Source: Candidatus Baldrarchaeota archaeon (GTDB lineage: Archaea; Asgardarchaeota; Baldrarchaeia; Baldrarchaeales; DXJG01). Taken from it: a stretch of DNA of 32,000 nucleotides. The position numbers and the translations under genes were made by a program. The first letter of the stretch is position 1. Each line of letters opens with the position of its first letter. Shown piece by piece: positions 5,840 to 22,812 of this stretch. Under the pieces are notes generated by a model. It was given only the letters and a program-made list of their open reading frames with translations, was not told where the DNA came from and searched no databases. The stretch is taken from positions 150,001 to 182,000 of the forward strand of contig DXJG01000004.1 of assembly GCA_019056805.1 (NCBI GenBank). The letters run 5' to 3'.

Positions 5840-6052
5840 CGAAATCGCACCGCCCGAAATGAAGTTCTCTTAAATCCAACAAATTTAAACAAAATAACTT
5901 AGTATTCAACCTTTAATTCACCGATTTCTAGTATTCACCATTTGTAGTATGAAAATACGCTATTGGTAATATTAAAATATCGCTTGGACGAACAAATTAA
6001 AACAAAGTTTTATTGTTTTTCAATAATTAAGTCAAAGATTGGAGGATTTGTT

Positions 6053-7522
6053 GTGTCTGAAATATTTTCAAATGATAGACCGGTTTTAGAACTGCTTTCT
6101 AGAGAAGAAATAGAGACCATACATGTCTCATCACTCAGAATTTTAGAAGATGTAGGTATAATGGTGGACAATAAAAATGCGCTTAAACTTTTTACTGAGC
6201 TAGGTGCCGACATAGACATAAATAAGAAAATTGTCCATGTCCCAGAATATTTGGTGAAAGAAGCTCTAAAGAGAGCTCCTTCTTCAATTAAAATGTATAG
6301 TAGAAATAGAAAATTTGACATGCTTCTAACCAGGAACAAGGTGTATTACAATCCGGGTTCCGCGGCTCTCTATATGCTTGATAGAGAAACTGGAGAGAGA
6401 AGAAAACCTTTATCCAAAGATTTCAGAGAATTTGTAAAACTCGTTGATGCAATGGAGAATATTCATGCTCAAAGTACGGCCATGGTTGTTTCAGATGTAC
6501 CAGAAATAGTTGCAGACAGATATAGACTCTACATAGTATTGAAAAACTCCACAAAAACCATAGTCACCGGAGCATTCACCATAGAAGGAATATACGATAT
6601 GAAAAAAATGCTAGAAGTAGTTGTCGGTGGAGAAAAAGAACTGAGAAAGAAACCACTGGCCATATTTGATGTTTGCCCATCTCCACCATTAAAATGGAGC
6701 GAAATAACATCACAAAACCTAATCGACTGCGCAAAATTTGAAATTCCAGCAGAAATAATACCAATGCCACAAGTTGGAGCCACAGGTCCAGCTACCCTAG
6801 CTGGATCTTTAGTACAATTTAACGCAGAATTCCTCTGTGGACTAGTTATGTCACAAATGACAAAACCAGGCGCACCCATAATTTACGGTGGATCACCGGC
6901 AATCGTAGATATGAGAACTGGAACAGGACGTCTAGCAGCCATAGAAGCTATCATGCTGTGCTGCGCCTATGCCCAAATAGGAAAATACTATAATTTACCA
7001 ACACATGCCTACTTAGGGCTCAGCGACGCAAAAATTATAGATGCACAAGCAGGCATGGAAGCGGCTCTAGGTCTAGTTCTAGGCGCATTAGCTGGCATAA
7101 ACAATATTGCTGGACCAGGAATGCTAAGTTTCGAAAACTGTCAAAGCTTCGAAAAACTTGTAATAGACAACGAAATCTGCGGTTATGCTCTAAGGCTTAT
7201 TAGAGGTATCCAAGTAAATGAAGAAACTTTAGCTTTAGATGTTATAGAAAAGGTTGGTCCGGGAGGACATTTCTTGGCACAAAAACACACGAATAAATGG
7301 TTTAGGATAGAGGAATACATGCCTTCAAACGTTATAGATACACGTAGTGAAAGAGACTGGCTTGAAAGAGGGAGAAAAGACATAGTACAAAGAGCTAAGG
7401 AAAGAGTAGATGAAATTCTTAAAGAGCATGAACCAGAACCTCTACCACCAGATGTAGAAAAAGAGCTAGACAATGTGGCCATGGAGTTCATGAAAAAACA
7501 CGGTGTAACCAAACTACCTTAA
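6053..7522 (+). CDS. mttB: Trimethylamine methyltransferase (MttB) superfamily protein, non-pyrrolysine type
   Basis: IH..SL.ILE.VG, GPATLAGSLVQ.NAE.L.G, PG.PIIYG, D.RTG, SDAK..DAQAG.E, GPGGHFL. No internal TAG; the residue before SDAK is Leu (CTC 7019-7021). GTG 6053 follows GGAGG. Confidence 0.92.
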   Translation: MSEIFSNDRPVLELLSREEIETIHVSSLRILEDVGIMVDNKNALKLFTELGADIDINKKIVHVPEYLVKEALKRAPSSIKMYSRNRKFDMLLTRNKVYYNPGSAALYMLDRETGERRKPLSKDFREFVKLVDAMENIHAQSTAMVVSDVPEIVADRYRLYIVLKNSTKTIVTGAFTIEGIYDMKKMLEVVVGGEKELRKKPLAIFDVCPSPPLKWSEITSQNLIDCAKFEIPAEIIPMPQVGATGPATLAGSLVQFNAEFLCGLVMSQMTKPGAPIIYGGSPAIVDMRTGTGRLAAIEAIMLCCAYAQIGKYYNLPTHAYLGLSDAKIIDAQAGMEAALGLVLGALAGINNIAGPGMLSFENCQSFEKLVIDNEICGYALRLIRGIQVNEETLALDVIEKVGPGGHFLAQKHTNKWFRIEEYMPSNVIDTRSERDWLERGRKDIVQRAKERVDEILKEHEPEPLPPDVEKELDNVAMEFMKKHGVTKLP

Positions 7523-7611
7523 ACCTCAAGTCAAAACTATGTATTTATAAGATTAACTTAATCATTTCGCCTTCTTTTTGCTTTTAATTAAAATAGGAGT
7601 GATTAGAAGTG

Positions 7612-17049: not shown

Positions 17050-17400
17050 CTATTTTTTGGTAAATGTTTTTGGAAAATCCGCTATATCTTTGAAAAATAG
17101 ATCAAAACATTTGTTAAAGACTTCTTTAAAATGTTTTAATGCATTTAAGCCTTTATCTGTAATTCTATAGAGTTTTATTCTTTTTCTTTTCGTTTTTTGC
17201 TCCCATTCTCCACTAATTAATCCTATTTCTTCCAATTGATAAAGGATTGGATAAACGGTGCCAGGGCTAAATTTGTGTCCAGTCATCTCAGTTAATTGAT
17301 TTACGATTTCATATCCATGCATGGTTTTTTTCAAAAGAAACCATAAGATTAAAGGTTTTGCTAGGCCTCTTACTATAGTTCTAAGTATTTCACTTTCCAT
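17050..17400 (-). CDS. PadR-family transcriptional regulator
   Basis: IL..L.K..MHGYEI...L, SPGTVYPILYQLE..GLI, RIKLYRITDKG. Start moved to ATG 17400 after GGAGTGA; overlaps the upstream stop by 11 nt. Confidence 0.92.
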   Translation of the reverse strand: MESEILRTIVRGLAKPLILWFLLKKTMHGYEIVNQLTEMTGHKFSPGTVYPILYQLEEIGLISGEWEQKTKRKRIKLYRITDKGLNALKHFKEVFNKCFDLFFKDIADFPKTFTKK

Positions 17401-18901
17401 AGATGAAATCACTCCTTCCATGCAATTGTGTTGGTAACACCTCATATTTATACATTTCACTTCTAAGATTTTCCCACGCAAACCTATTATTTATACAGCC
17501 AGGGTCTGGAGCAAGATAATCTCCAAAATACCCATACCCTCTTGCTCTACAGCCTCCACAAACATATTTAAACTCACATTCACCGCAGTGTCCCTTTAGT
17601 TTCTCTCTATTTCTTAAATCCCAAAACACAGGATGATTATCCCAAATTTCTTCAAAATCGTCTTCTCTAATATTTCCAACAGGTAATGGGAAGAACACGC
17701 AAGGGGTAATTGTACCGTCGGGATCTAGGGCGCAGTAGAATCGTCCAGCACCACAACCACCAATAAACTCACTTAAATTTAACAATTGACCATGAAGATG
17801 CGGATTGTAAAAATGTGTTGGAACAACTATCTCTTTACTCTCTTTCCCGTATTGTTCTTCCATTTGCAGCGCTACTCTTGCGAATTGTGGAGCAGTGGAT
17901 AACACTTGCATTCTTCTACCTTCTCTCAATCTTTTCCATAAAAATTTCAAAAGTTCCTCTCTTTCTTTCGGTGTAAGGTCATTTTCAATTATGAATCGAC
18001 CTCTACCAGTTGGAACAAAGTTATACATCATCCACCAATTTACGCCAAGTTTTTCACAAAGATCAATAACCTCTGGAATTTCTTTATATGTGAATTTTGT
18101 CGCTGTCGTAGAAACTTCTACAAAAATTCCTTCTTCAACACAATTTTTAATACCCCTAATAGTTTTCTCAAAAACTCCTAGTATGCCTCGGAAGTTATCA
18201 TGAGTCTCAGGCCTTGCTCCATCTAAACTTATTTGAACATATCCTATGCCAGTCTCCTTTAGCTTCTTCGCAATTTCTTTGGTGATTAGAGTTGCATTTG
18301 TTGCAACGGCCGTAAAAATTCCGTGGTCACGCGCCAGTTTAGCTATTTCGTAGAAATCTTTTCTCATCAGAGGTTCGCCGCCAGAAAAAGCTATGATATT
18401 AACACCTGCATCTGCAAATTTTTCCACAACTTTCTTTGCCTCTTCTGTTGTAAGTTCGTTTGGATGAGGTTTTCCTGCTGAAGCATAACAATGTTTACAT
18501 CGAAGGTTACATAAATACGTGTAGTTCCAAACAACTAGGAAAGGTGCACCGGGCACGAAAGGTTTTTGTATTCCAAATTTTGCTATACCTCGGATAACGT
18601 TGACAAGTCCTCTTCTCCAGTAAACATTCTTAAATTTCTCTTTGAAATCTTCTTCGTTTACTTCAAATGCTTTTGCACCTTTTCTTGCTACCCACTCTAC
18701 GATAGGAGCAACTATATGTGTACATGCCCAACATGCACTATTTCTCTCCTTAACGTAGAGTTCCAAAGCTACTTCAAGCCTATTTTTATTGTCCTTTTTA
18801 CAGAACCCAGAGAATTGTCTTAGAAGGAATCTTAAAGGCTTTTTATCAGCTGTAAACTTTAGTAATTCAATGCTTTTTATGGTTGAAGACCTTTCACACA
18901 T
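17390..18901 (-). CDS. Radical SAM/SPASM-domain protein (PqqE/AhbC-like) with a long N-terminal extension
   Basis: CNLRCKHC (18488-18511), FSGGEPLMR, VQISLDG, SPASM motifs GCGAG...C.L.PDG.ITPC and CGEC....VCGGCRAR....C. ATG 18901 follows GGAGG. Confidence 0.93.
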   Translation of the reverse strand: MCERSSTIKSIELLKFTADKKPLRFLLRQFSGFCKKDNKNRLEVALELYVKERNSACWACTHIVAPIVEWVARKGAKAFEVNEEDFKEKFKNVYWRRGLVNVIRGIAKFGIQKPFVPGAPFLVVWNYTYLCNLRCKHCYASAGKPHPNELTTEEAKKVVEKFADAGVNIIAFSGGEPLMRKDFYEIAKLARDHGIFTAVATNATLITKEIAKKLKETGIGYVQISLDGARPETHDNFRGILGVFEKTIRGIKNCVEEGIFVEVSTTATKFTYKEIPEVIDLCEKLGVNWWMMYNFVPTGRGRFIIENDLTPKEREELLKFLWKRLREGRRMQVLSTAPQFARVALQMEEQYGKESKEIVVPTHFYNPHLHGQLLNLSEFIGGCGAGRFYCALDPDGTITPCVFFPLPVGNIREDDFEEIWDNHPVFWDLRNREKLKGHCGECEFKYVCGGCRARGYGYFGDYLAPDPGCINNRFAWENLRSEMYKYEVLPTQLHGRSDFIYGK

Positions 18902-20460
18902 TCTGACCACCCTCCTTCAACCATTGTAAATGTTTCCTTTTTGACGCGGCATTCCTCTATTTTTCCGTAGATTATCTTTCTTATCTTGTTATTTGCTTTC
19001 TTGACAATGTAGTTTATGAAACGCATCATGAATGTTCTTGCAGCCCAATTCATTTTACGGAAATAGTCTTGAGCAAGTTCTGTTAACCAACGTATACCGT
19101 GATCCCAACAAGCCAGCATTAACTCCCAATGATATTCATTCATATTTTGTACTCCAAACCGTTCCTTGTTTCTCAAGGTTCCTAATGGAACGAAAAATAG
19201 CGGTACAATCAAGCTTTTGTAGTCTTTAAGTCGATCTAAGAGTTCAATAGTCTTCACTACATCATCTTCTGTTTCATCTGGTAAACCTAGTATTAAAGTG
19301 GCACAGGGAACCCAATTACTATCTTTACAAATTCCAAAAGCTTGTTCAACTATGTCAGGCCATTCTTCAGGCTTAAATGGAAGAACCTTACCACGCATAT
19401 GCTTACTCATTATCTTATGGCTTCCAGTTTCAATTCCAGTTTGACCTGCAATCCAAGGTTTATCCTTTGTACCAACACCGACAATATTAGATAATTCCTC
19501 CAGTAAAGTTGGCTCAGAAACCACAGACGAAAGGGCAAAATGGCTCGGACCTATACCGATAACATCATCCATTTTCATTATAGCTTCCCAAAGCTCAATA
19601 ACAGCTTGCCGATTAACCCTAATTCCATTAGCTTTGTAACGTAGAATGTCTTCAGCATGCAAATTTATCCATCGAGGTCCATATCTAAGATTAACTTCAA
19701 CTTCCTTCAAAATATGCTCTAAAGGTCTAGAACGAAGCTTCCTAAGAGTCGGGACACAAAATCTGCAACCACGACCACAACCCCTAGCGATTTCAACCAG
19801 AGAGCAAACAGTAGGATTTTTAATAATATGCATATCATCTACTTCAACAACATCTCCATAAACAACCTCAGGTACATTTTCTCCTTGAATAATCTTCTCA
19901 AATAATGGTGGAACTACATTTTCTCCTTCTCCAATAACAACAAAATCTATACCAAGTTCATGACGAGGTCCAGGATCTTCAAGCTGCCAAGCTCCTGGAC
20001 CCCCCACAACTATTTTTGCACCCCATTTTTTAAGATAAGGATCTGTTACAAGTTCTCTAAATTTCCATTTTGTGTAAGATTCCTCATTAACAAGTCCTAA
20101 AGGACCCGAAAAAGTAGTTGAAGCAGGACCTAATCCCAAAGGATCATTTGATGAAATTCCAATAATTTTCGTATTAGGCCCAACAAATTTTCTTATTCTA
20201 TCTGGAACTACAACTGCAACTTCATCTTCATCAAAACCATAATCTAAGAGCGCAGCTTCTATTTTACGTAAACCGTAAGGCGCCATCTTAGCTATTCCAT
20301 TATTATAGAATGGCACAGGTGGACAAACGAATCTAAAGTAGAAGAATGGATTAATAAGGTTCTTTGGTCCGCATGCAGTGAATCCTAGGAAGAGAGCATT
20401 GTGATAATTACTCATTAAGCATCTCTCTGCGGTCAAAACAATCTTATATCCTTCCCTCAT
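18877..20460 (-). CDS. B12-binding-domain radical SAM protein, Grs/Gms-like (GDGT ring synthase / GMGT synthase family)
   Basis: EIARGCGRGCRFC (Cys at 19756-19779), KIVVGGPGAWQL, VIGEGE, TGIETGS. The N-terminal IVLTAER.LMSNYH..FLGF and APYGLRKIEAAL segments match the Grs family as I remember it. ATG 20460 follows GGGGG. Confidence 0.8.
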   Translation of the reverse strand: MREGYKIVLTAERCLMSNYHNALFLGFTACGPKNLINPFFYFRFVCPPVPFYNNGIAKMAPYGLRKIEAALLDYGFDEDEVAVVVPDRIRKFVGPNTKIIGISSNDPLGLGPASTTFSGPLGLVNEESYTKWKFRELVTDPYLKKWGAKIVVGGPGAWQLEDPGPRHELGIDFVVIGEGENVVPPLFEKIIQGENVPEVVYGDVVEVDDMHIIKNPTVCSLVEIARGCGRGCRFCVPTLRKLRSRPLEHILKEVEVNLRYGPRWINLHAEDILRYKANGIRVNRQAVIELWEAIMKMDDVIGIGPSHFALSSVVSEPTLLEELSNIVGVGTKDKPWIAGQTGIETGSHKIMSKHMRGKVLPFKPEEWPDIVEQAFGICKDSNWVPCATLILGLPDETEDDVVKTIELLDRLKDYKSLIVPLFFVPLGTLRNKERFGVQNMNEYHWELMLACWDHGIRWLTELAQDYFRKMNWAARTFMMRFINYIVKKANNKIRKIIYGKIEECRVKKETFTMVEGGWSECVKGLQP

Positions 20461-20486
20461 ACAAAGCCCCCTAGCCACGTGAACCA

Positions 20487-20498
20487 TTACATATGTAA
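20487..20498. promoter_or_regulatory. Perfect 12-bp palindrome TTACATATGTAA, candidate repressor site
   Basis: Verified palindrome 27-38 bp upstream of the B12 radical SAM start, downstream of the predicted TATA box. Confidence 0.4.
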
Positions 20499-20507
20499 AT
20501 ATTTTAA

Positions 20508-20526
20508 TTTTCGAATATTACGAAAA
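20508..20526. promoter_or_regulatory. Inverted repeat TTTTCG-N7-CGAAAA containing the shared 10-mer TTCGAATATT
   Basis: Arms at 20508-20513 and 20521-20526. A second TTTTCG-TT-CGAAAA lies at 20539-20552, and the same 10-mer occurs at 21807-21816. Confidence 0.45.
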
Positions 20527-20528
20527 CT

Positions 20529-20547
20529 CATATAAACTTTTCGTTCG
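20529..20547 (-). promoter_or_regulatory. Putative BRE + TATA promoter of the radical SAM-PadR operon
   Basis: The minus strand reads ...CGAAAAAG-TTTATATG, matching the archaeal BRE (cRnaAnt-like) + TATA consensus, about 70 bp upstream of ATG 20460. Confidence 0.5.
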
Positions 20548-20588
20548 AAAATCGACGAAATCAAAATAAAAGTGTTTTTAAATCCATT

Positions 20589-21743
20589 TTACCTTAAAAT
20601 TGTCATAACTTCCTCATAAACTTCCAAAATTCTAAAAACCAGCTTATTCCAATCATATACTTCTTCGACCTTTTTCCTAGCATTCCTACCTATTCTATTC
20701 ATTTCCCTTTTATCGGAAAGTAATCTAATTATAGCATTCCTCAATTCCCCTGTGTCATTTGGCTCAACTAAAAGACCATTTACTTCATGATCTATTATTT
20801 CAGGTATACCACCCACTTTGGTTGCAATCACCGGCTTTCCAGATGCCATTGCTTCAAGAATAACTATTCCAAAAGCTTCAGCAAAAATAGAAGGACAAAC
20901 AAAAATGTCCGAAGCAGCATAGAGTTTAATAAGCTCATCATCCGAAATATAACCCAAAAACTCTACTTTATCCGCTATGTTATTTGCTCTAACCTTATAT
21001 CTCAGGTATTCTCTAAGAAAACCTTTTCCCGCAATTAATAGTTTTGCTTCAGGAAATTCCTTAACAACATGCTTAAAAGCATCAACCAGAATATGAATAC
21101 CTTTTCTAATACTAAGTCTTCCAACAAAGAGTATTATGGGAACATCTAAAGGAAGATTAAGCTCTTTACGCAATTTTCTAGTATTTGAAGGGAAAATAAA
21201 TCGTTCAAGATCTACTCCGTTTGGTATTACCTCTATTTTCTTTGGATGAGAAACTATATGCGACATAAACTGCTTAACAGCTTTGCTTACAGCAATTATT
21301 TTATCTGCTTTGTCAAAAGCTCTTTTCATTGGGTACAAAACAGGTTTTAACGTTTTCCATATTACGCCGTGACGGTACCCTATACCTAAAGAATGGGCCG
21401 TTAAAACCGTAGGGAAACCATGTTTTGAAGCTAGTGAAATAGAATAGAGAGATACAGGGGTAAAAGCATGATGACCATGTACAATATCAAATTTTCCTTC
21501 TAATATTACCTGTTTAATCTGTTTCAAGTCTAACGGTGATAAAACTTGAATTCCAGGGATCGTGAAGCCCTCTAATCGAACCACATTAGTTATAGGATTA
21601 TCAACATTTTCTTCAAAAGTTTTAATTGTAATTATTTGAACTTCGTGCCCCAACTTAGAAAGAGATCTAGCTAATCCTTTGATGTGAGTTGCGATCCCCC
21701 CAACTTTAGGATAATACCAGTCACTACACATGGCAATTTTCAT
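20589..21743 (-). CDS. Glycosyltransferase family 4 (GT-B, PimA/RfaB-like)
   Basis: YYP.VGGIATH, HGHH, DKIIAVS, VIPNGVD, ILFVGRL..RKG and the EX7E motif EAFGIVILEAMASG. ATG follows GGTGA. Confidence 0.95.
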   Translation of the reverse strand: MKIAMCSDWYYPKVGGIATHIKGLARSLSKLGHEVQIITIKTFEENVDNPITNVVRLEGFTIPGIQVLSPLDLKQIKQVILEGKFDIVHGHHAFTPVSLYSISLASKHGFPTVLTAHSLGIGYRHGVIWKTLKPVLYPMKRAFDKADKIIAVSKAVKQFMSHIVSHPKKIEVIPNGVDLERFIFPSNTRKLRKELNLPLDVPIILFVGRLSIRKGIHILVDAFKHVVKEFPEAKLLIAGKGFLREYLRYKVRANNIADKVEFLGYISDDELIKLYAASDIFVCPSIFAEAFGIVILEAMASGKPVIATKVGGIPEIIDHEVNGLLVEPNDTGELRNAIIRLLSDKREMNRIGRNARKKVEEVYDWNKLVFRILEVYEEVMTILR

Positions 21744-21794
21744 AACAATGTCACCATATTCCCCCGATACTAATCATCATATGCTGCTTTAAAT

Positions 21795-21832
21795 TATCGT
21801 ATAAAATTCGAATATTTTATAGCAATACGATA
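21795..21832. promoter_or_regulatory. Nested inverted repeats in the divergent GT4/UbiA promoter
   Basis: Outer arms TATCGTAT (21795-21802) / ATACGATA (21825-21832), inner arms ATAAAAT / ATTTTAT (21801-21807, 21814-21820), centred on TTCGAATATT. Confidence 0.45.
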
Positions 21833-21918
21833 TTTAAGTACTTCAACTTTACGTGATACTGATCTTAAAACTAATAAATAAAAATGTTTTACAATTATGT
21901 TATACCTTTATCGGTGGA

Positions 21919-22812
21919 ATGAATTTGAAGGAAATACCCAGAGCATTTTTATCACGTTTATTTGGAGTTAAATTTTATTTCCTTAATTTTCGAATTACAA
22001 ATTGGAGAGCTTATCTGGGTCTATCGCTTCTTCCCTTTATAGAAAATATGCCGGAATTCTTTACTAATGTATCAAGGATCAAAATAATTCTCATTAGTCT
22101 TGCAACAATTTCATGTTTTCTTGCCTTCACATTTGGGCTAAATAACTGTTTCGATATCGAAACAGACATAAATGAAGGAGATCTAAGTAAAAATCCTATA
22201 GCGGCTGGAAAACTTTCCTTTAAGGGCGCTTTGGTTACATCACTCTTAATGGGGTTTTTAGGCGTCATGGTACTTACATTTCTTATACCATTTAATACTA
22301 TAATTCTCATTTACCTAACTTTGCTTTTCCTAGGTGCATTTTACTCCGCTCCGCCATTTAGATTTAAGTCAAAACCATTTTTGGACGTCATATCTCATGG
22401 ATTGTTCTTTGGATCATTACTTTACATCTATGGGCATCTTCTTCAAGGAACTAAACTTTCATCAATTATTACAAACCCTCTAGTTTTCCTAATATTTACT
22501 TATAGTGTCGTTTTGAATATGCGGAATCATTTTGAAGACTATAAATATGATTTAGAAGCAAATATCAGCACTACTGCAACATATTTAGGATATAATAAAA
22601 CTAAAAAAGCCATATTTTTATTAATTCAAGTACATTGGACGATGTTAACAATAGTTTGCTTAATTACCAGTATTTATCTTTTCATAGGTATTTTAACACT
22701 TTTTCTTGTAAGCAATATGTTATTTCTTTCAAAATTGTTTAAATTTGAGAAATGGCTAAAAACTATAGATATATTTACGATAATATCTTACATATTACTT
22801 GCTCTTCACTAA
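21919..22812 (+). CDS. UbiA-family intramembrane prenyltransferase
   Basis: Multiple TM segments, aspartate motifs NNCFDIETD and NHFEDYKYD, NPIAAG, YSAPPFRFK..P..D. Start ATG 21919 or TTG 21925 (track GTG 21853 is unlikely). Confidence 0.9.
   Translation: MNLKEIPRAFLSRLFGVKFYFLNFRITNWRAYLGLSLLPFIENMPEFFTNVSRIKIILISLATISCFLAFTFGLNNCFDIETDINEGDLSKNPIAAGKLSFKGALVTSLLMGFLGVMVLTFLIPFNTIILIYLTLLFLGAFYSAPPFRFKSKPFLDVISHGLFFGSLLYIYGHLLQGTKLSSIITNPLVFLIFTYSVVLNMRNHFEDYKYDLEANISTTATYLGYNKTKKAIFLLIQVHWTMLTIVCLITSIYLFIGILTLFLVSNMLFLSKLFKFEKWLKTIDIFTIISYILLALH

Follow-up and report, generated by a model that had tools for sequence, protein, structure and literature searches.

The window analysed here, a stretch of 32,000 nt (C11:150001-182000) from the 1.92-Mb, 18-contig metagenome-assembled genome (MAG) of a Baldrarchaeia-like Asgard archaeon, contains five adjacent genes that code for two radical SAM proteins, a PadR-family regulator, a GT4 glycosyltransferase, and a UbiA-superfamily prenyltransferase. 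The best explanation of this locus, to which we give a probability of about three in four, is that of a grs-gms-padR operon coding for the enzymes that introduce rings and cross-links in tetraether lipids, with PadR as an autorepressor, next to a separate UbiA-GT4 module. The enzymes are expected members of published families, to which they add an Asgard example, and clusters of grs and gms have already been published (Garcia 2024, PMC11214058).

The operon lies on the minus strand. Its first gene, grs (18877-20460, 527 aa), codes for a B12-type radical SAM protein of the Grs family, a putative ring synthase of glycerol dialkyl glycerol tetraethers (GDGTs); gms (17390-18901, 503 aa) codes for a radical SAM/SPASM protein, the predicted synthase of glycerol monoalkyl glycerol tetraethers (GMGTs); and the last gene, padR (17050-17400, 116 aa), codes for a short regulator that scores 68.4 bits against the Pfam PadR model (cut-off 27). 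By coordinate arithmetic, grs and gms overlap by 25 nt (18877-18901) and gms and padR by 11 nt (17390-17400), and the three genes look like one operon, as had been proposed in the original prediction, an earlier note made from the DNA letters. The start of grs is ATG 20460, and the 527-aa product is identical to a database entry; a longer call of this open reading frame (ATG 20487) begins within a palindrome, TTACATATGTAA, and both the database form and the relatives favour 20460. The start of gms is ATG 18901, and an N-terminus MESE... common to the relatives supports ATG 17400 for padR. The closest relatives of the locus carry Baldrarchaeota or Baldrarchaeia names. DNA of the locus is present in subsurface and marine metagenome sequencing runs, and no RNA dataset is found among the runs listed as containing it.

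The radical SAM/SPASM protein is, judging from its predicted fold, Gms, that is, a GMGT synthase, and not a relative of Gmm, Tes, or the Ahb proteins. The best Swiss-Prot structural match of its AlphaFold model (pLDDT, the predicted confidence score, of 87.5) is the GMGT synthase of Methanothermococcus okinawensis (F8AME3; Li et al. 2024, PMC11186832), with TM scores of 0.83/0.89 and 45% identity. Residues 9-479 align to residues 4-465 of F8AME3, including the N-terminal domain of ~120 aa. The two proteins thus share the full-length fold, the N-terminal helical domain, the radical SAM motif, and the SPASM cysteines, the difference being that the window protein, known from sequence and model, is ~40 residues longer. 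The table of Gms homologues in the source data of PMC11186832 includes RLF15027.1, which is 62% identical to the window protein and 51.7% identical to the M. okinawensis enzyme. The cysteines C131, C135, and C138 of the radical SAM CX3CX2C motif are invariant, and of the seven conserved SPASM cysteines (C383, C401, C439, C442, C448, C451, and C469) all are invariant but C439, which is nearly so.

The top NCBIfam matches of the same gene are AhbD (313 bits) and NirJ2 (294 bits), which would be expected from a haem enzyme of the AhbC/AhbD/NirJ type, or else from a peptide maturase. These scores are, however, far under the respective cut-offs (500 or more), and the matches extend over no more than residues 125-474. 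Likewise, AhbD aligns to the model only over residues 118-470, and AhbC and NirJ only from ~118 onward, whereas both the N-terminal domain and the full length of the protein match Gms. There is no gene for a peptide substrate at the locus, the partner gene being grs. The AhbD/NirJ identity was rejected given the sub-cut-off scores and the core-only alignment, as opposed to the full-length match with Gms, and we consider a haem enzyme or peptide maturase extremely improbable.

Two elements of the original prediction have to be corrected at this point. It took Gms to be a B12-domain relative of Grs, when Gms is a SPASM/Twitch radical SAM enzyme and the B12-type enzymes are Gmm and Grs (PMC11214058); here Gms is the product of the second operon gene. 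It also allowed for methylation, with Gmm as a known example, and nothing at the locus resembles Gmm: neither of the two radical SAM proteins is of the MoeK5/HpnP type, i.e., combines a strong PF02310 match with the radical SAM domain as in class-B enzymes. The gms gene of Thermococcus guaymasensis is part of a cluster with grs and gmm (Garcia et al. 2024, PMC11214058). The resemblance between the two loci lies in a Grs-family B12 radical SAM that adjoins a SPASM-type GMGT synthase, both of which would act on GDGTs made by Tes. In contrast with that cluster, the window locus lacks the Gmm methylase, has a PadR translationally coupled to gms and an upstream UbiA-GT4 pair, and belongs to an Asgard MAG. 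Tes is encoded on contig 17 (C17:107892-109445; 679 bits for NF045702, cut-off 450), and the presence of its gene elsewhere in the genome therefore suggests that the GDGT substrate is available.

Outside the window, several radical SAM genes are clustered at C9:429000-438700, and the only class-B B12 radical SAM of the genome, of the BchE/HpnJ/HpnR type, is found at C9:437200-438609. The latter could be a relative of Gmm, of the GDGT methylases, or of Ted, a desaturase among the Gmm homologues (10.1101/2025.10.20.683597).

The B12-type radical SAM protein is, according to its alignments and phylogeny, a Grs, but one of an uncharacterised subclade. It aligns over nearly the full length with GrsA (36.6% identity, 299 bits) and GrsB (35.3% identity, 274 bits) of Sulfolobus acidocaldarius, whereas these two share only 32% identity (217 bits) with each other. 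The genome of S. acidocaldarius, recognised by its Sac7d genes (PF02294) and by the matching proteins AAY80898.1 and AAY79657.1, contains exactly two matches to the window Grs, at 1.354 Mb and 0.200 Mb. Their positions, from which we infer the locus tags, fit Saci_1585 (GrsA) and Saci_0240 (GrsB), and the window grs is the reciprocal best hit of both within the MAG. The three proteins have the same domain order and the N-terminal APYGLRK motif, the window protein differing in its separate, uncharacterised subclade. The motif APYGLRKIEAAL of the window Grs has its equivalents in APYGLRKVEASL (GrsA) and APYAIRKIEALL (GrsB); the match proposed in the original prediction for this motif and the N-terminal segment could thus be read in the proteins themselves. 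Cysteines C228, C232, and C235 of the radical SAM CX3CX2C motif are invariant in the alignment. In the structural model (pLDDT 91.8), a Rossmann-like domain at the N-terminus is followed by a barrel and, at the C-terminus, by long helices. A fold search of Swiss-Prot, where there is no Grs entry to match, returned only distant methylthiotransferases and MJ1620 (13-19% identity). PF02310 is annotated on many Grs homologues, not on the window protein itself. A Grs-alignment search of genome contigs returned MAGs only, and no cultured reference. Among 401 near-complete Thermoproteota genomes, 377 have a Grs-family match, with one to three copies each.

In a 53-row maximum-likelihood tree, with the other B12 radical SAMs of the same genome as outgroup, the Grs family is monophyletic against the latter (support 98/99) and includes the window protein, so the family assignment of the original prediction stands. 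Within the family, the window Grs falls outside both the GrsA clade (98/92) and the GrsB clade (98/97), in a subclade of 11 rows (100/99) with Baldrarchaeum, Hecatellales, and Ferroglobus/Archaeoglobales that has no characterised member. This position outside the two characterised subclades is what one would expect if the protein carried out some other tetraether chemistry (a different ring position or size, or another C-H functionalisation) and not the cyclopentane synthesis of GrsA and GrsB. Such a reading also draws on the unexpected activities held by lipid radical SAM families, such as that of Ted (10.1101/2025.10.20.683597), and on the three to five Grs paralogues of several genomes, which suggest diversification. 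We find it unlikely, however, as the window Grs is nearer to GrsA and to GrsB than these are to each other, conserves both APYGLRK and the radical SAM motif, and has no other family member beside it in a genome that encodes Tes. Cyclopentane ring synthesis is thus the preferred function.

The Grs searches also returned homologues in other settings. A Nitrosopumilales MAG contains ~5 Grs-family paralogues (35-39% identical to the window Grs), two of them in tandem (L095:4363-5988 and 5992-7566), which may have a bearing on the additional rings of crenarchaeol. In two Baldrarchaeia contigs, an orthologous grs is preceded, ~700 nt upstream, by a geranylgeranyl reductase gene (GGR_cat), another lipid context (L015/L016:6056-7273). 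Bacterial Grs homologues have already been treated in the literature. One in an Acidobacteriota MAG contig of 70-75% GC (L096:5998-7602) is 37% identical to the window Grs, has a long branch, and lies divergently to the gene of a 1200-aa protein in which AMP-binding, carrier-protein, and acyltransferase domains are fused (an Aas-like lipid enzyme); it could be a candidate bacterial tetraether ring synthase. Another, in a contig binned as Acidiferrales (L089:5878-7527), adjoins a class-B B12 radical SAM and is nearly identical in the tree to that of a Euryarchaeota MAG, which is likely the result of bin contamination or recent transfer.

If these assignments hold, Tes would join two archaeol-type lipids into GDGT, the Grs-family enzyme would most likely make cyclopentane rings in the biphytanyl chains, and Gms would form a C-C bridge between the two chains to give the H-shaped GMGT, these steps being predicted by homology. 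PadR, translated from the same message, would most likely bind conserved palindromes that overlap the TATA/start region of grs and repress its own operon until released by a hydrophobic or amphiphilic ligand. This model of repression is proposed because of the behaviour of the family, the position of the gene, and comparative genomics. The window PadR resembles the repressors PadR of Bacillus subtilis and LmrR of Lactococcus lactis in its short winged-helix domain, probable autoregulation, and palindromic candidate operator over the promoter, and differs from them in its link to lipid-tailoring radical SAM genes. Bacterial PadR operators have the form ATGT-N8-ACAT, which the palindromes of the window do not follow.

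The link between PadR and the tetraether genes extends beyond the window. The PadRs that adjoin grs in loci of Bathyarchaeia and Nitrososphaerota share 37-44% identity (77-94 bits) with the window PadR, while its own genomic paralogue reaches only 33 bits; the whole MAG has three PadR genes. By these similarities, the grs-adjacent PadRs and the window PadR are one subfamily. A search with Grs gave 80 loci from species-representative, mostly archaeal genomes. A PadR lies within ~1 kb of grs in seven of them, distributed over at least four Grs clades, and the genomes concerned hold merely 4-14 PadR genes each. A metagenome scan centred on PadR (a narrow PadR alignment; 80 loci) gave the converse view. 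Considering the 32 informative, Bathyarchaeia-like loci, i.e., those with at least 3.3 kb of flank on the relevant side, 28 contain Grs and/or Gms and 18 a UbiA-family gene, the latter being present in all four that lack Grs and Gms. A second PadR, mostly divergent, is found in 68 of the 71 loci with room for it.

Candidate operators can be identified in both groups. In the lineage of the window, five relatives keep a stretch of ~55 nt upstream of grs almost unchanged, and the remaining spacer diverges. The conserved grs promoter block (20485-20545, minus strand) contains TATA-like boxes and two candidate PadR operators, the perfect 12-nt palindrome TTACATATGTAA (20487-20498), found once in the 1.92-Mb genome, and the imperfect palindrome AATATTCGAAAATT (20506-20519). 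In Bathyarchaeia, the spacer of the divergent PadR pair contains another perfect 12-nt palindrome, TTGATATATCAA, which most of the 59 distinct spacers keep and which hardly occurs outside them (66 sites in 460 kb, allowing one mismatch). At least five loci have it again immediately upstream of grs, and it is absent from the window, which was searched for it.

It is possible, if somewhat doubtful, that this PadR subfamily is the dedicated ligand-responsive regulator of grs, gms, and the linked UbiA across Bathyarchaeia, some Nitrososphaerota, and Baldrarchaeia, and that UbiA, with or without GT4, carries out an undescribed tetraether step. Several observations weigh against the regulated operon itself. 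The loci of the PadR scan are relatives of one another (67-92% identity to the query PadR), and their counts are not independent events. The candidate operators differ by lineage, with TTACATATGTAA in that of the window and TTGATATATCAA in Bathyarchaeia. The orthologous grs of Baldrarchaeum yapensis, Ferroglobus, and other Archaeoglobales occurs without gms or padR. The Grs subclade being uncharacterised and the backbone of the tree unresolved, the position of the ring, and even ring formation, is extrapolated.

Upstream of grs, after a gap of 128 nt, lies the gene of the GT4 retaining glycosyltransferase (20589-21743, minus strand, 384 aa), with the Pfam domains Glycos_transf_1 and Glyco_transf_4. 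Because of these 128 nt, GT4 may be off the grs transcript. Divergent from it is the gene of the UbiA-superfamily prenyltransferase paralogue (21853-22812, plus strand; 81 bits for Pfam UbiA). Its open reading frame opens at GTG 21853 and the likely start is ATG 21919, which gives 297 aa, versus 295-296 aa in the relatives. The arrangement of the original prediction, with GT4 upstream on the same strand and UbiA divergent, was thus reproduced, as were the coordinates and domains of all five genes and the two overlaps.

The same note described UbiA-family enzymes as forming ether bonds, which was not borne out for this one. The protein is below every NCBIfam cut-off and scores 30.9 bits, versus a cut-off of 296, with the PRK12882 model of digeranylgeranylglyceryl phosphate (DGGGP) synthase, so that it is not a DGGGP synthase. 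It shares with this enzyme and with other UbiA-superfamily prenyltransferases both Asp-rich motifs, invariant here (N97/D101/D105 and D229/D233), and a YSxPPxRxK motif. It differs from them in its sub-cut-off scores, in its pairing with GT4, and in being a second, rare paralogue: there are two UbiA genes in the genome, of which the other has twice its Pfam score, and the family to which it belongs has 16 matches at E ≤ 1e-20. GT4 also reaches no NCBIfam cut-off, the nearest models being BshA, MshA, and lipid-headgroup glycosyltransferases and the nearest solved structures Tll1590, BshA, and PimA/PimB'. The pair probably carries out prenyl transfer and glycosylation on a membrane lipid or lipid carrier.

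The same five genes are found in L018 and L112-L114, with proteins 59-89% identical. Because unrelated flanking genes are also collinear in these close relatives, the synteny of the five carries little information. The claim of a syntenic set of five genes thus holds as such only in close relatives with collinear flanks; what recurs near grs or gms in another phylum, in other arrangements, is PadR, the UbiA paralogue, and less often GT4. The adjacent grs-gms pair is also found in L020, L021, L034, and L079.

One may therefore ask whether GT4 and UbiA are neighbours by descent only, with PadR a generic local regulator and membrane remodelling ending at grs-gms. In relatives whose UbiA is 59-65% identical, collinearity extends over the entire region and takes in unrelated aldehyde dehydrogenase (ALDH), amidohydrolase, and rhomboid genes; GT4 is preceded by a promoter of its own; and the majority of the 80 loci of the Grs search lack GT4, UbiA, and PadR. 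On the other hand, UbiA orthologues (36-41% identical) form a pair with GT4 in three further contexts: a Bathyarchaeon with grs-UbiA-GT4 on one strand (L029), a locus where UbiA-GT4 adjoins a PadR pair (L155), and a Thermoproteota/Brockarchaeota contig with UbiA-GT4 and without grs (L115). In addition, many loci of the PadR scan (18 of the 32 informative ones) have a second type of UbiA (best match PRK12884) located between the PadR pair and grs, and the PadR subfamily nearly always adjoins grs or gms. Mere common descent has a substantial chance of being the explanation, although we do not favour it. In the explanation that we prefer, GT4 and the divergent UbiA would make up a separate two-gene module that recurs beside grs or PadR in other lineages.

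The opposite extreme is the full model of the original prediction, a single PadR-inducible system of five genes, comprising cross-linking, cyclisation/methylation, prenyl transfer, and glycosylation, that makes an undescribed lipid. All five gene types do recur near one another in a second phylum, and the exact 10-mer TTCGAATATT has two copies in the window, one in each promoter region, that of grs and the divergent one between GT4 and UbiA (21744-21918), where it occupies positions 21807-21816. Yet the locus lacks a Gmm-type methylase, UbiA is not a DGGGP synthase, and TTCGAATATT is not conserved at the GT4/UbiA promoter, being absent or degenerate there in four relatives, which also counts against our own reading. 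Sites with one mismatch to TTCGAATATT occur elsewhere in the genome, and, with this lack of conservation, an operator shared by the two promoters was set aside as a weak candidate. A single five-gene system thus seems quite improbable, and the operon with a separate UbiA-GT4 module is preferred.

Relative to the literature searched, what is new is the link of a PadR subfamily to grs and gms, together with the rare UbiA paralogue; these are leads, not proof. In that literature, neither this link nor a named regulator of the tetraether ring and cross-link genes was found. The number of rings and the H-shaped cross-links of tetraethers underlie widely used proxies of palaeotemperature and pH and matter for membrane adaptation, and PadR may be the first candidate switch for changes in them. 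The modification of tetraethers was recently reported to respond to amphiphilic and aromatic stressors (10.1101/2025.10.20.683597), a response with which the PadR link is consistent. With defined palindromes at hand, the link makes the control of GDGT cyclisation and cross-linking approachable by DNA-binding and ligand experiments. If the dedicated role suggested above for the PadR subfamily is true, it would open a first way into the question of how archaea adjust the rings and cross-links in their membranes.

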